From NCBI GenBank assembly GCA_018402095.1, contig JAGYJO010000001.1:1-45261 (forward strand): DNA of 45,261 bases, given 5' to 3'. Position 1 is the stretch's first letter. Each line of letters begins with the position of its first letter. Positions 17,203 through 37,913 of the stretch are shown one piece after another. Source of the stretch: a bacterium. Its GTDB lineage: Bacteria > Margulisbacteria > Marinamargulisbacteria > SXXA01. Below the pieces are notes generated by a model, which worked only from the letters and a program-made list of their open reading frames with translations, searched no databases and had not been told where the DNA came from. The translations under genes and the position numbers were made by a program.

Positions 17203-17246
17203 ATAGCCCTTTCAAAAAAAAAACACTTTCTCGCCGAAGGCGAGAA
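17203..17246 (-). terminator. Family A REP copy placed as a terminator for the minus-strand gene ending at 17248.
   Basis: The minus strand reads ttctcgccttcggcgagaa followed 4 nt later by a run of 10 T. It lies between convergent genes (vapC stop at 17198, GT9-remnant stop at 17248). Confidence 0.5.
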
Positions 17247-17247
17247 C

Positions 17248-18850
17248 TCAAAGTATTGCTGTTGCCGTGGGCTTAAACGTGTTGTGGTACAGGTCCGTGA
17301 GGGTATCTATCTCCGTGGCTATGGCGGGTGTCCACACAGGGGGGACGTACATGCCCAGCGCCGCGATTTGACGGAGTAGTGCCCATCCCCATGGTTTGTG
17401 TTGGCTGTGGATGACGCAGAGATCATGGGCCCAGATGCGTTGTAGGAGGGCCAGTGGTGAGCGTGGTGTGCGGAGTACCCAGACTTTGAACCCAGATTTT
17501 TTGAGAAAATCATAGAACGCTTGGTAATGCAGCCTCTCGGCATCATTATGGATGAGGATGCCAATGTGGAGGCTGCTAGGCATGAGGGAGCCCACCCCCA
17601 ACCCTTCATGAATCTGCCTTTGGGCAGATCCAGCCGGGCAGCCTACATCTCTGCCGAACCAGCCTACCCGGCAGGTTCTTTTCCTCCTTGCAGTCGGCGA
17701 GATTCCGGTTACGTCGCAAAGCCGACTCACCTCCCAGGAGGGGCTTTTTTTATTGTCGAGGGTTTCGTGTGCCTGTGGCAGACTCACCCTCGAGCTCCCA
17801 GGTTTTGGTAGGGGTGGGACAGTCATCAGCGATACCAATGCCTCAAACGCTTGTTCGATGGCAATTGCATCGAGACATGTCGTCACTGGGCATTTGTAGG
17901 GACGACACACCAGGTCTTTTTTGCTCGTCTGTTCGCTGGCGATCATCAATCCGGGTTTCCCAAGGACCCCAGCGCAGTGATTGGCTCAGATTTTGTTGGG
18001 GAGATACAGAGAACCGGTCGCTTCAATGCTGCTGCGATATGGGTGGGGCCTGTATCTGCCGCCGATCCTAACGCTATCATTTTGTCCGATAGGGGCCATG
18101 GGGGTGCGTAGTGATGTTTGGTTTACGGTGGATATCACACGTGTCTTGTCTGCTGACGCTGCGCTGGCGGCTGGGATCTCCGGCGACTTTCTTTGCTTCG
18201 TTTTTGCCCGCGCCGGTGAGGACGACTTGCAAGGTGGTTTTGTCAAAATCATGGTGTCGTACAGCATGTTGGTCACGAGACCATAGGCGATTGCCGCCAC
18301 CGGATGCAGGGTGGATGATGATAAAGTCGGAACCTATGCCGAGCGTCGTCTCAGGCGTCGTAGCGGCCTCGCGATCGTCATGAGAGATAGAAGTCCACGC
18401 CAGTGAGACAAAGGCTGCTGTGTCTGAACGCCATTAACGGTTAGCCATTTGTTTCATTCCCATAGCGCATAACGTTACGATAATCGAGTGAGATGGGGTG
18501 GGCAGCCATGGGCGCAACAATACTTTTTGGCCATCGCCGATACGAATGGGAATGCCAGCCGCCCACATGAGTCGGGCATGGTAGGGCTCAGATAAGGCAT
18601 AGTGACGTCAGAGCGCTGGCTGCGCAACTCCCCTTGGCAGCCTGACGAAATCCCCGAAACCTGCTGGCCTCTCCTGACTTTTTGCGGTCAATACCAGGAC
18701 GCTGGTGATCGCTGGGTGATGGGCCAGTAGTGGGGCTATGTGGCCTTGTTGGAGGTGTGGATTTCCGGCGTGGGGTAGTGGTGTTTGAGCGTGTTGATGA
18801 GGGGGATCCTGGGGACCCATGTCTCCGGCCAATGGCGCGTCAGGGCGGAG
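17248..18850 (-). pseudogene. Second GT9 (heptosyltransferase-family) glycosyltransferase, decayed. Tandem paralog of 18940..20403.
   Basis: GT9 motifs are scattered over three frames: LGDM..IPLINTLKHHYPTPEIH, APLLAHHPAITSVLVL, IPIRIGDGQK, FIIIHPASGGGNRLW, VVLTGAGKNE, VNQTSLR..MAPIGQNDS, AADTGPTHIAAALKRPVLCISP, WGPW. The C-terminal extension LHIGILIHND...FKVWVLR parallels the extension of the intact paralog. A repeat element is inserted at 17585..17800. Confidence 0.7.
17585..17800. repeat. Family C element (reverse orientation), inserted in the GT9 remnant and read through in frame by ORF 17248..17949.
   Basis: It contains the reverse complement of the cores shared with 28750..29035 and 37638..37913: ggctttgcgacgtaaccggaatc and gctgaatctgcc.aaggcagat. 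Confidence 0.75.
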
Positions 18851-21398: not shown

Positions 21399-21478
21399 GG
21401 GGGCTTGGGGGACGCTAGTTTCAAAACAAACAAACTTGCTCGCCAAAGGCGAGCAAGAAAAAGTCTCAAAGGCTTCTG
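21399..21478. repeat. Hairpin-train REP-like element (family D).
   Basis: ggggcttgggggacgctag..caaaac..cttgctcgccaaaggcgagcaag aaaaagtctcaaaggcttctg. On the minus strand the central hairpin is followed by tttgtttgtttt. Confidence 0.65.
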
Positions 21479-21521: not shown

Positions 21522-21630
21522 GGGGCGACACTTCGGCTGCGCTCAGTGACCCAAAAACACCGAAAAAGATATTCTGCCTGCGCTTTGCTGAGCGAAATAT
21601 AGATTAAAGGGCTGACGCCTTTTAAATCCC
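21522..21630. repeat. Partial family C element (5' module only).
   Basis: ggggcgacacttcggctgcgctcagtgacccaaaaacaccgaaaaag...attaaagggct matches 37638-37735 (ggggcgacactttggctgcgctcagtgaccctaaaaccccgaaaaac...attaaagggct). Confidence 0.65.
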
Positions 21631-22008
21631 TGTTAAGCCTCCTGGCGTAGGAAGTGGTTACATTTAGATCTCTCTACACATTGTGAATTGCGACAGGGGT
21701 CCCTGAGGTCCTAATTTGATTTCGTGTTGGTATCTTGCGGTGACTGGTTGTCTTCCTGGTCATCGTTATCCTGAGGGCCTGCTACCGCATAGTCATCTTC
21801 TCGTCGCTCAGGACCCGACGAAGCAGTGGTAGCTGCCGGCGCCTACTGCGAGACCTATGATGATGCGATCGCAAGTCCTGTGAAGAGACTACTGGTATCA
21901 CTTTCTGCGGCACTTGATGCAGAGGGGTTTGTGCTGTTGCCGGTATTCGCGTGATCGTCGTTTTGAGTGTCGATGGTGATGTTGTTTGTGTTGAATTGTC
22001 GATACTTT

Positions 22009-27765: not shown

Positions 27766-27877
27766 TATACCCATTCAAAATAAAACCTGGACCGAGGACT
27801 TTCCAAGTCGCTATGGTCACATATAAAGAATACTCCGTCACGATTTGAAACCCATATTTTATTTTGGAACGGGTATA
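27766..27877. mobile_element. MITE (112 bp), same family as 16243..16358.
   Basis: tatacccattcaaaataaaacc...ggaccgaggactttccaagtcgctatggtcacatat...attttattttggaacgggtata. Confidence 0.8.
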
Positions 27878-28749
27878 CAAATCCAGTTATCAAAAAAACA
27901 AAAGAAATTGCAGTTTTTTTTAACGTTTATTAACAGGCTATCCCACAACGCAATCCCATTGCAGATAATGCGCGTGTTGCTGCGTCTTCAGCGATTGTCA
28001 AGCGTCAGTGTTTGCCTGCCACTGTTGTCGGGAGCCTCATCGCCATTGGCCCATGATCGTCGCCATCCAGTTCGGTATGGCGTTCCAAATCGGGGTTGTA
28101 AGGGAGCGACGCAGCAAGGATCTGTTTCGTAGTGGTGTTTGACCGATGCACGAACATGTCGGGATGACATCTTACGCGACCCAATGCAAAGGCCGCGGCA
28201 ATCGCTGGCTGTGATCCAGACTGCTTACGATGTCCCATATTGGTCAATTGATGTTTTTGCGGCTTCAGGCTTCCGTTTTCTCTGTGACAGTAAACGAAAC
28301 GCCTTGGCAATTCGGCCAACATCGATGATAGGGGTGGTGTTGGCGCCCATTGTATACCTCAGCGTCGACAAAATTAAATGGCTGGTGGCCACCATCAGTA
28401 GTGTCGGATTCTTCTGCCGGACAATTTCATTAATCATTCGACGGGCTTGGGTATGTGTCGGCAGGAATCCACGGAACCGTGACACATGTTATGTGTGTTG
28501 CAGTGACTTAGGAGAAACATAAATCCCAAACCAGACGATGCAGTGTTTCCACCGTTGTTGGAGGTCTGAGGTTTGTTAGCTGCGTACATGGGGTGGGTTT
28601 GTGAGCGTGGTAGAGGCTCTAATTTGCACACAGGAGGCTGTTTGTTTTGGGGTTCCTTATTGGTGTAATGCACATTAGTATAATCTGTTTTTTTTGAGTT
28701 GGGAGTCCCAAATCACCCGTCGTTTGCTGCAAAACCTTCTGGCAGAGGT

Positions 28750-29035
28750 AACAGGGATTCAAAGGGCGTCAGCCCTTTGTAAATCTCTGGCTGGGGGCAG
28801 AGCCCCCGAAAAACATTATTCGCTCCAGCTTCGCTAGGCAGATATGAGTTAATAAAGGGCTTCGCTGGTCCACAAGGGTTTCTCCTCCGAAGGTGGGGGG
28901 CTTTGCGACGTAACCGGAATCCATAAACTGTAAGGAGGAAAAAGGCGTACACGGGAGGTGCGCTGTCAGAGATCTGGCCACGGCCAGCTGAATCTGCCAA
29001 GGCAGATTTATGAGAGTAGATCCCTATTAGCCCCC
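28750..29035. repeat. Family C element (~285 bp), apparently full length.
   Basis: It shares with 37638..37913 the blocks ccccgaaaaac, cagcttcgct, taaagggctt.gctggtcc, ggctttgcgacgtaaccggaatcc, ctgtaagga, gctgaatctgcc(c)aaggcagatttatga, and atccct.ttagcccc. Confidence 0.75.
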
Positions 29036-29151
29036 TGGCCTGGTAAACTGGTTACCGTCGTTTACCTATATGTATATATCTACTGTTAACTGGTCGCCAA
29101 TCGATAGCGGTGTCGGTTTGCCGGTGAATGGAAGTGGAAAGGAGGTCGACG

Positions 29152-36290: not shown

Positions 36291-37637
36291 ATTGTTTTGG
36301 GATAGCGGATTGCTCCCTAAGGTCCCAAAGGGGCTCCTGTAATCGCTTCAAAAGTCCCATGTTTTGGATGACATGATTGAAACATCGTACCCAATGCAGG
36401 TTTATTTTCCCTAAGGGTCGGAGAAGAGTGGAATTATTATGAATGCAAGGTAAATCATCTATTTTAGTCATAATATCTTTGGTTGAGACAGACTGGCGCC
36501 AAAGTGGCATCGCCAAAGTTCCCTCCATGTCTGTTTCTGAAGGTCTAATTATGTTGCAAACGGGTAAGGCTGATAAGACCACAGACCCTGCTGTGGAGTT
36601 CAAAACAAGATAATCCAACTACGTGCAGAGTGACATGGACGACCGCTGAATCAGAAGAGGCCGAGGGGAAGGAGTAAACCTGCCAAAACTGGTCGCTCTT
36701 GTAGATGATGTCGTGTCTATGGATTCTCCACCGCATGTGCAGGTGGGCAGTAAACGTCATTCTCAATGAAGCTATTTGGTAGGCTCTGATTCAGTAGCGT
36801 CTCATTGTCCTTCATTTTGTCTCAGAGTTTACAATTATGCTCAAGATAACCCCGGCACGGCAAAAACAGCTATTCTCGAGATGCCTTGAGGGTCACCTTG
36901 TCAGCTTACCCGTGTTGACTACCCTTGATGGGTCCTATGACTCCGTCAGGCGCCGAAAGCGCAAACCCATTTTGAAGGTACGCTGGTGAAAACTATGGCC
37001 TGCAGATTGGTGATGGTCTGGTAGATCGCGTATATCTTCGACAAAGACCGTTCTGGAGGGCCCGTATATCCCGGCTGATATGACGGGAGGTGGTCTCACA
37101 TGCCAGCCACAGTATTGTCTGGTGGCAATACAAACCCCTACTTCTCGGAGAATAGTTTGACATTTTGCAGGAAGAGATACATAAGGTGAAGCTTTGGACC
37201 CCAGATAACGCGACGTATGACCTATGAAAATTTTGAAAAAAATGATTTGAAATTGAATCTGGGTGGAGATGGTCCACTCAGAATACCTATACGGTTTTGG
37301 GGCTGCCTACAAACGTGGATTCTGGAAGATTGTCGAAACTCTCGAATCACCATCGGGGTATGTTGACGCTAATTCTGATAGCAAAGGTCAAACTCATGTA
37401 TTCCAGAATTACGCTTTTCAATTACAGACGTCTGAAGGTAAAGCTGTCTATGATTTATATTTGCAAGAAAGGGCGCGCCGGGTGCAGTACACAGGCTCAG
37501 AGAAAATGGGGTATCTGAGGCCGGATTACGGTGATTTTGGTACCGCACAGGGGTATTCCGCTTTGGGGCTTTGCGTCATTGCATCACGAAGCGATGGATG
37601 CAATTCAGGTAGGGGTGTCCGTAATCGATTCCCTAGA

Positions 37638-37913
37638 GGGGCGACACTTTGGCTGCGCTCAGTGACCCTAAAACCCCGAAAAACTGCTTTCGCTCAGCTT
37701 CGCTGAGCAAAGTGGAAGGATTAAAGGGCTTAGCTGGTCCCTGCAGAGGCATCTCGGAAAGTGAGGAGGCTTTGCGACGTAACCGGAATCCGCCGACTGT
37801 AAGGAAAGAAGCCAATCACATTTTTCCCAGGAGGTGTACGCTGTATCAGAGATAGTAGGCTGACCAGCTGAATCTGCCCAAGGCAGATTTATGAAGGTGA
37901 ATCCCTTAGCCCC
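37638..37913. repeat. Family C element (~275 bp), apparently full length.
   Basis: See 28750..29035. The 24-nt core ggctttgcgacgtaaccggaatcc is identical in both copies. Confidence 0.75.

Follow-up and report, generated by a model that had tools for sequence, protein, structure and literature searches.

The window analysed here, a stretch of 45,261 nucleotides, belongs to an assembly of 1.80 Mb in 398 contigs that is 77% complete. Repeat finding together with covariance modelling delimits a core of about 140 nt that is common to three copies in the window. The best preserved of them, at 17602-17740 on the minus strand, scores 153.6 bits with model R1 and 131.5 bits with model R2, and its fold has a z-score of -4.3. 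It is composed, in order, of a 5' extension (GGTGAGTCGGCTTTGCGACGTAACCGG), helix P1, the P2 hairpin, GGCTGCCCGGCT, the P3 hairpin and CATGAAGG. The second copy, at 28882-29017 on the plus strand, is more diverged (96.1 bits with R1 and 67.2 bits with R2), and the third, at 37751-37898 on the plus strand, has an enlarged and diverged P2 region (109 and 82.2 bits, respectively). Repeat D9 joins 28896-28936 to 37765-37805, while I2 and I3 join both of these stretches, inverted, to 17701-17740. The motifs quoted in the original prediction could all be located in the sequence, that is, the 24-mer at 28899-28922, at 37768-37791 and, on the minus strand with one mismatch, at 17700-17723, CTGTAAGGA at 28928 and 37797, and the GAATCTGCC..GGCAGATT hairpin at 37870-37889, variants of which occur in the other two core copies.

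The sequences that surround the core are of a different kind. Core copy 2 is preceded by a mosaic of REP-like hairpin modules (28749-28881, plus strand; TAACAGGGATTC, AAAGGGCGTCAGCCCTTT, GGGGGCAGAGCCCCC and AAAGGGCTTCGCTGGTCC), which are members of separate repeat families and include I4, an inverted repeat with 21606-21635. When the element of core copy 2 was compared with the whole assembly by BLAST, its query positions 1-39 matched more than 20 sites that carry no core. On its 3' side lies AGATCCCTATTA (29018-29030, plus strand), a degenerate remnant resembling a T-loop and T-stem, comparable to the GAATCCC and TTCGATCCCC flanks found elsewhere. Similarly, core copy 3 follows 5' modules at 37638-37750 on the plus strand (the D5 repeat GGGGCGACACTTTGGCTGCGCTCAGTGACC, the hairpin CGCTCAGCTTCGCTGAGC, and AAAGGGCTTAGCTGGTCC), and is followed by another T-loop-like remnant, GAATCCCTTAG, at 37899-37909 on the plus strand. 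The element had been proposed as a 250-290 bp family with four copies, and three of the four are borne out at the positions given above. The putative fourth copy, at 21522-21635 on the plus strand, consists of core-less REP-like 5' modules (D5, the AAAGGGCTGACGCCTTTT hairpin and AAATCCCTGTTA) and gives no match to the core covariance model; what its 21522-21630 part shares with the others is the 5' modules, namely GGGGCGACACTTCGGCTGCGCTCAGTGACC (D5) and the AAAGGGC..GCCCTTT hairpin (I4). The original prediction noted the likeness of the 5' modules to REP sequences but missed that they are repeat families in their own right. The statement that terminal inverted repeats and duplications are lacking is not quite right either. 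The copy at 28749 has TAACAGGGATTC (28749-28760) on its left and an imperfect inverted copy of it past the core near 29020-29030, and the element of core copy 3 is bounded by an imperfect direct repeat, GATTCCCTAG (37627-37636) and GAATCCCTTAG. The boundary repeats of these copies, at 28749 and 37627, are short, and their significance is uncertain.

A BLAST search of the four claimed copies against the assembly separates the two components. The 3' part of about 140 nt recurs as a unit on about 15 other contigs, while the 5' part of 40-130 nt recurs widely without the core, for example as GGGGCGACACTTCGGCTGCGCTCAGTGACC, as AAAGGGC..GCCCTTT hairpins and as CGCTCAGCTTCGCTGAGCG. Since the 5' pieces and the 3' core recur independently, the supposed 250-290 bp family is a composite, of which only the core is coherent. 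Some other small repeats in the window (at 16117-16426, 17208-17252, 21417-21461 and 27776-27881) are independent of the core; they comprise hairpins of the CTCGCCGAAGGCGAG type after runs of A and an element of about 110 nt (16254-16362 and 27776-27881). In addition, an intact ORF for a PIN-domain (VapC-like) protein is located at 16785-17198 on the plus strand, about 400 nt from core copy 1.

The genomic alignment of the core gives the consensus AAGGTGAGGAGGCTTTGCGACGTAACCGGAATCCCGCCGACTGyAAGGAGGAAAAGG-[hairpin]-TCCGTCAGGGATGTAGGCTGCCCGGCTGGATCTGCCCAAAGGCAGATTCAyGAAGG. Based on 13 paralogous copies, RNAalifold predicts helix P1 (AAUCCC/GGGAU), the P2 hairpin and a long P3 hairpin closed by CCC/GGG, with double changes at 11 pairs. 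The covariation check proposed with the original prediction turned out strongly positive, both within the genome and across the class. Within the genome, where a MAFFT alignment independent of structure was used, 95% of the cells are paired, compared with 34-43% when the partners are slid by 1-3 columns, and 10 pairs are altered on both sides, a number equalled in one of 500 shuffles. Across the class, 91% are paired compared with 32-38% in the slid controls, and both sides have changed in 27 of 30 pairs, in an alignment of 31 sequences from 16 genomes (30 distinct rows) that was fitted to the model and is hence biased toward the structure. The core is a structured module with three covarying helices, P1, P2 and P3, and carries the compensatory base changes that distinguish a structured non-coding RNA. 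G-U and U-G pairs together number 39, whereas A-C and C-A number 8. This excess indicates that the strand shown is the one that folds, and suits RNA better than DNA.

The conserved module spans about 100-140 nt, and short forms exist from which the entire P2 domain is missing. Among the joining bases, G.AAC.G, CGCCGAC.G, A.GGAGG, GCUG.CCGGCU and A.GAAGG are at least 80% conserved class-wide, and a Shine-Dalgarno-like stretch (UAAGGAGG or UAGGGAGG) is conserved in the junction. A pseudoknot between CGCCGAC and CCGGC was also considered and rejected, the single informative variant (L016) being not compensatory. As for protein coding, the ORFs that cross the core (a sense one at 17248-17949 in the window, and an antisense one in G002) have no Pfam match, the frames differ among copies, which are separated by indels of 1-2 nt, and the short ORF after the Shine-Dalgarno-like stretch is unconserved and missing from the short forms. 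Given ORFs on either strand without Pfam matches, the indels and the forms without P2, the core does not look protein-coding.

The core corresponds to no RNA family in Rfam 15. At the gathering threshold the window yields only a tRNA, and at E <= 10 the region 28650-29150 has no match at all, the HEARO, IS605-orfB and retron families included. For the loci of five relatives, a search at E <= 1 returned tRNAs and chance hairpin matches on the hairpin formed by tRNA tail and arm. Likenesses to hammerhead, twister, SRP, tmRNA, RNase P, cobalamin and FMN RNAs were considered, and none is backed by Rfam. The search for mobility genes in the assembled part of the genome, where at 77% completeness an absence is no proof, gave no match to the TnpB zinc ribbon (PF07282), the Y1 transposase (PF01797), the reverse transcriptase (PF00078, RVT_1), the IS110 transposase (PF01548) or the resolvase domain, and tblastn with the large serine recombinases of the class found none; two tyrosine recombinases of XerC/D size are present. 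Reverse transcriptase is likewise unmatched in five other carrier genomes (G007, G021, G028, G039 and G044), three of which are at least 90% complete. No tnpB or iscB, Y1 or reverse transcriptase gene was found beside any of about 60 core copies in the phylum. In the comparison of neighbours at about 35 loci, genes of the IS200/IS605 kind were likewise missing, the IS110 transposase was not among the recurrent neighbours, and no conserved downstream gene or ORF was found. A supposed relic of a serine-recombinase zinc ribbon 5' of 17602-17740 is unsupported by Pfam and tblastn. The literature searched contains no account of such an element.

These results bear directly on the specific candidates named in the original prediction. 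Its general idea of a multi-copy, non-coding mobile module resembling a structured RNA holds; its examples do not. With the guide RNAs of IS200/IS605 (TnpB/IscB) elements and with retron RNAs, of which it was proposed to be a relic, the core shares a conserved scaffold followed by variable sequence. However, this genome gave no match to the TnpB zinc ribbon, the Y1 transposase or the reverse transcriptase, the copies in the phylum are not accompanied by such genes, and the Rfam families in question give no match even at the permissive threshold used. For the genomes examined, this origin is effectively refuted. The autonomous copy expected next to tnpA, tnpB, iscB or a reverse transcriptase gene was not encountered, and the only recurrent neighbour is a large serine recombinase, which is considered below.

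A covariance model derived from 13 copies matches this genome at 18 sites, of which 13 are full length. Several contigs end in or beside a copy, and therefore the true copy number is probably higher. The copies are flanked by differing mosaics of small hairpin repeats, and among 16 of them there is no common terminal inverted repeat and no consistent target duplication; that is, the shared terminal inverted repeats and the target-site duplication of fixed length by which a MITE is recognized are both absent. Of the 14 tRNA genes in the assembly, not one has any of the 18 copies in its vicinity. In about half of the copies, however, a T-loop-like stub (TGAATCCC, TTCGATCCCC, CGAAGCCCC or AGATCCC) directly follows the terminal ...GAAGG, which suggests that they descend from ancestors inserted in tRNA genes. 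A different kind of spread is seen in the G021 genome (L042, L045 and L047), where a short core variant lies inside an element of about 250 nt that alone has true terminal inverted repeats (17 bp, TAGAGSCCATCTCATAA), ends in ...TCTA, is devoid of the CGCCGAC..GGGAGGA domain and is present in about 10 near-identical copies. This is a true MITE with a captured core module, and the capture indicates that the core readily joins dispersed repeats.

The core is distributed patchily. It was detected by covariance model in 14 of the 55 genomes of the class, which falls within Candidatus Margulisiibacteriota, and model R2, built from diverse copies, detects it in 23 of the 146 genomes of the phylum. 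The copy number is 1-6 in most carriers, 12 in one of them and 17-18 in the present genome. Such patchy occurrence and variable copy number point to a mobile element rather than a housekeeping RNA. The core-bearing contigs are labelled as Candidatus Marinamargulisbacteria or 'UBP8' MAGs, apart from a few MAGs labelled otherwise. In metagenomes the core motif pattern occurs in 14 stretches, on 13 of which the model confirms the core, and the viral contigs of IMG/VR contain no exact match to the pattern. The placozoan Trichoplax sp. H2 is recorded as having a Marinamargulisbacteria symbiont (PMC6784892). That a host-restricted lifestyle led to the repeat expansion in the present genome can be offered as a lead only.

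Outside this genome, the core is found in a distinctive setting. Among about 31 copies with enough upstream sequence to be assessed, 20 are preceded within 200 nt by a tRNA gene of the same orientation, and the core shares the strand of the tRNA in all the tRNA-linked copies. The order in these relatives is a full tRNA gene, a short spacer, an antisense arm, the core and a second tRNA 3' end, and three metagenome contigs also show tRNA, core and tail in this layout. The tRNAs concerned include those for Asp, Arg(TCG), Arg(TCT), Val, Met, Lys, Ser(GCT), Ser(TGA) and Ser(GGA). For example, five different tRNAs of G028 (Asp, Arg, Val, Met and Lys) are followed by copies of the core, which are about 90% identical to one another when compared by eye, and in the single-cell genome SCGC AG-343-D04 (L030) two 196-nt units are arranged in tandem. 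The tail copy usually starts 21 nt from the CCA, between T55 and C56 (TT|CGAATCC...CCA). For 18 of the 20 genome copies and the 3 metagenome copies that are linked to a tRNA, there is an exact repeat of 18-26 nt that starts 21 nt from the 3' end or, at four loci, 22-27 nt from it. An intact tRNA gene followed by a direct repeat of its 3' end from a fixed position in the T-loop is what characterizes an integrative element of tRNA T-loops. The left edge of the repeat is fixed, while its total length varies from 10 to 72 nt; it often overruns the CCA by 13-49 nt into the downstream spacer, and at some loci it runs through the antisense arm.

The 5' arm consists of 9-21 nt that are antisense to the T-loop and 3' strand of the local tRNA, and is longest, at 21 nt, in L030 (TGGTGGAGAGAGAGGGATTCG). 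Examples of arms and the flanks that they match are GGGAATCGAA with TTCGATTCCC, GGGACTTGAA with TTCAAGTCCC and GATTTGAACC with GGTTCAAATC. The predicted duplexes of the arms average -18.9 kcal/mol with their own 3' flank, compared with -14.4 kcal/mol with the flanks of other copies, and the own-flank mean was reached in none of 20,000 permutations (p < 5e-5). Since an arm pairs best with its own flank, the arm covaries with the local tRNA. Folding of the 154-nt unit of L030, from the arm to the CCA of the tail copy, gives a closing stem of 20 bp and a z-score of -9.5.

Several loci depart from this arrangement. On the metagenome contig MDSY01030592.1 (L090), an island of about 8.8 kb with seven ORFs lies between the full tRNA-Arg(TCT) gene and a 47-nt partial copy that begins in the anticodon loop, after which the core follows. 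The stretch is an unrelated anticodon-loop island that integrated later at the same tRNA. At another locus (L103, G011:C156:1400-3000), tandem repeats fuse the 5' part of tRNA-Ser (acceptor and D-arm) to a core fragment, unlike the T-loop units. In G029 (L011), tandem coding repeats of about 70 nt (of the ...EYASxELKGDREVVLEAVK... type) follow the tRNA-Arg unit; G018 (L111) has more of them, and the locus is rearranged between these close relatives.

In an all-vs-all comparison of the ORFs around about 35 copies, one neighbour family alone recurs, that of large serine recombinases in which Resolvase, Recombinase and zinc-ribbon domains are combined. In G002 the recombinase gene is intact and the core, in divergent orientation, lies about 20 nt from its start, in G007 the gene is a pseudogene with the core about 50 nt upstream, and in G039 the order is core, tRNA-Ser and recombinase. 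The recombinases of the class, which are 40-46% identical, are nearly always convergent to a tRNA or tmRNA gene. At some of the loci L048-L063 (15 genomes), a mere 18 nt or so separate the stop codon of the recombinase gene from the end of the tRNA. The family is present in 10 of 13 carrier genomes and in 17 of 41 non-carriers. A search of 16 recombinase-gene regions for a full-length master element yielded one additional core only, five extended regions (73.8 kb in total) contain no core, and the recombinase islands have no tRNA-tail repeat within 20 kb. The link between recombinase and core, which involves three genomes with a pseudogene in one of them, is therefore weak, and the proximity of the two could reflect a common preference for tRNA genes. 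A precedent for such enzymes at RNA genes exists in Dehalococcoides, whose ssrA islands are moved by a CcrB-like large serine recombinase and have their target site midway in the tmRNA T-loop. Their insertion gives rise to a 20-bp repeat that is immediately preceded by a conserved motif, and the islands occur in tandem arrays (McMurdie et al. 2011, PMC3146451).

We therefore propose that the core belongs to a miniature mobile element which inserts into the T-loops of tRNA genes by means of an enzyme acting in trans, and which has become dispersed like a MITE in this genome, a tentative reading to which we assign a probability of about 0.45. This small, patchily distributed element of Marinamargulisbacteria-type bacteria is best filed as a miniature tRNA-T-loop integrative element built around the core. 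Integration would proceed by site-specific recombination in the T-loop, with the complete tRNA preserved. As the unit contains no gene, it would rely on an enzyme provided from elsewhere, for which the large serine recombinases beside tRNA and tmRNA 3' ends would be the best candidates. The core would be transcribed from the tRNA strand, and its ends may be clamped by pairing of the arm with the tRNA-tail copy. In the present genome the element has lost its link to tRNA genes and has been amplified, to at least 17 copies, as a module of mosaic REP-like repeats. Some observations speak against parts of this proposal. A simple attP x attB event does not account for repeats that extend 13-49 nt past the CCA, the match between the arm and its own tRNA is left unexplained by the mechanism, and the sequence of P3 is variable next to the junction, a poor fit to a double-stranded site for protein binding. 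As for the role of the recombinase, the present genome, the richest in copies, is without a serine recombinase in the 77% that is assembled. In the relatives no orthologous locus was found for an empty-site comparison, and neither empty sites nor excised circles nor polymorphic insertions were observed.

Could the core instead be purely a repeat of the REP, MITE or attC type, whose helices are hairpins of single-stranded DNA recognized in transposition or recombination, with no functional RNA involved? Integron attC sites and the ends of IS200/IS605 elements are structure-specific recombination sites that also covary on one strand. The core copies of this genome are surrounded by REP-like hairpin modules, the G021 variant resides in an element with terminal inverted repeats, and the arm and the tRNA-tail copy form an inverted repeat around the core. 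However, about 35 near-invariant unpaired bases in a multi-helix junction are more typical of a folded RNA, the ratio of G-U to A-C (39 to 8) is high for DNA, which tolerates G-T but less well, no Y1 (HUH-type) transposase was found, and every tRNA-linked copy lies on the transcribed strand of the tRNA. A DNA-only repeat is thus unlikely. Another, quite unlikely explanation is a small RNA that is retained by the host and co-transcribed with tRNAs, where the tail copy would be a tRNA-like 3' end for processing or stability and the spread would be due to ordinary recombination between T-loops. At several loci the core does abut the CCA end directly, the pair of tRNA-Arg(TCT) and core has been kept in several related genomes and metagenome contigs despite the 8.8-kb island upstream, and the Shine-Dalgarno-like UAAGGAGG or UAGGGAGG is conserved in the junction. 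A host function of this kind is difficult to reconcile with presence in only 14 of 55 class genomes at 1-18 copies, with tRNAs that differ between genomes, with the common decayed copies, and with the failure to find any conserved gene or ORF downstream.

The antisense arm invites two further explanations. The core and arm may constitute a new guide RNA that pairs with the T-loop and 3' strand of tRNA genes and steers a recombinase to them, possibly one of the tRNA-linked large serine recombinases, as the bridge or seek RNAs do for IS110/IS1111. The covariation of the arm with the local tRNA and the conserved, structured scaffold are consistent with this, as is the position of the core directly upstream of the large serine recombinase gene in G002 and G007. 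Nevertheless, we know of no RNA-guided serine recombinase and of no way in which the arm could be reprogrammed, a recombinase gene is missing next to most copies, the search of this genome for an IS110-type transposase was negative, and the arm may merely close the RNA on its own 3' flank, so that we regard a guide function as very unlikely. Alternatively, the arm could be the primer-binding site of a SINE-like retroelement primed by tRNA, with the variable repeats as duplications from target-primed reverse transcription. The arm indeed opens with TGG, the complement of CCA, in L030 (21 nt) and L016 (9 nt), and the repeat length does vary between 10 and 72 nt. Such an element is weakened by the lack of any RVT_1 match in this genome and the five other carriers searched, and the repeat has a constant left edge in the T-loop, in contrast to duplications from target-primed reverse transcription; a SINE-like origin is accordingly highly improbable. 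Integration in tRNA T-loops with an enzyme in trans thus remains our preferred reading.

The element adds an undescribed family resembling a structured RNA to a little-studied phylum that is sister to Cyanobacteria. A gene-less unit of 150-200 nt is unusually small to bear the footprint of T-loop integration, and its arm is matched to its own tRNA. If the arm acts in the choice of target, it would represent a new way to aim recombination at tRNA genes, and if the guide reading were true, it would amount to RNA-programmed site-specific recombination unrelated to the bridge RNAs of IS110. If the arm has no part in target choice, the element is still a clear case of a tRNA-linked element becoming a dispersed repeat, here in a genome that is decaying and may well be host-associated. 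For annotation, it should be noted that these units yield partial tRNA copies and break assemblies.

Among known systems, the ssrA islands of Dehalococcoides (PMC3146451) resemble the core element in the 3'-end repeat of about 20 bp, the element-borne motif directly upstream of it, the tandem arrays and the recombinase gene convergent to the 3' end of the RNA gene. However, those islands are 10-30 kb long and carry their own recombinase module, whereas the core unit has about 150-200 nt and no gene, and in place of a 15-bp motif beside the repeat there is a covarying fold of 100-140 nt. The core element further differs in its antisense arm and in its use of many different tRNAs, and a dependence on the recombinase is in its case only inferred. 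The bridge or seek RNAs of IS110/IS1111 are alike in being structured non-coding RNAs that are encoded terminally in a mobile element and contain a stretch able to pair with the target site, the RNA being predicted in the case of the core. The latter has no DEDD transposase, a different fold and one complementary arm that matches its own 3' flank, and the likeness does not imply a common function. As in the omega RNAs of TnpB and IscB, the conserved scaffold extends exactly to the boundary of the element, beyond which the sequence derives from the flank. Unlike them, the core has no tnpB or iscB nearby and no Rfam match, its flank is always the tail of a tRNA, and an antisense arm lies upstream. 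Finally, the core shares with MITEs and REP or BIME mosaics its short, non-coding, multi-copy and intergenic nature, and its copies break the assembly. In contrast to MITEs, it has neither fixed terminal inverted repeats nor a target duplication of fixed length. Its strand-specific covariation, G-U pairs and invariant junction, which set it apart from MITEs and REP sequences alike, point to a folded single strand, and its ancestral site, unlike that of MITEs, would be the T-loop of a tRNA gene.
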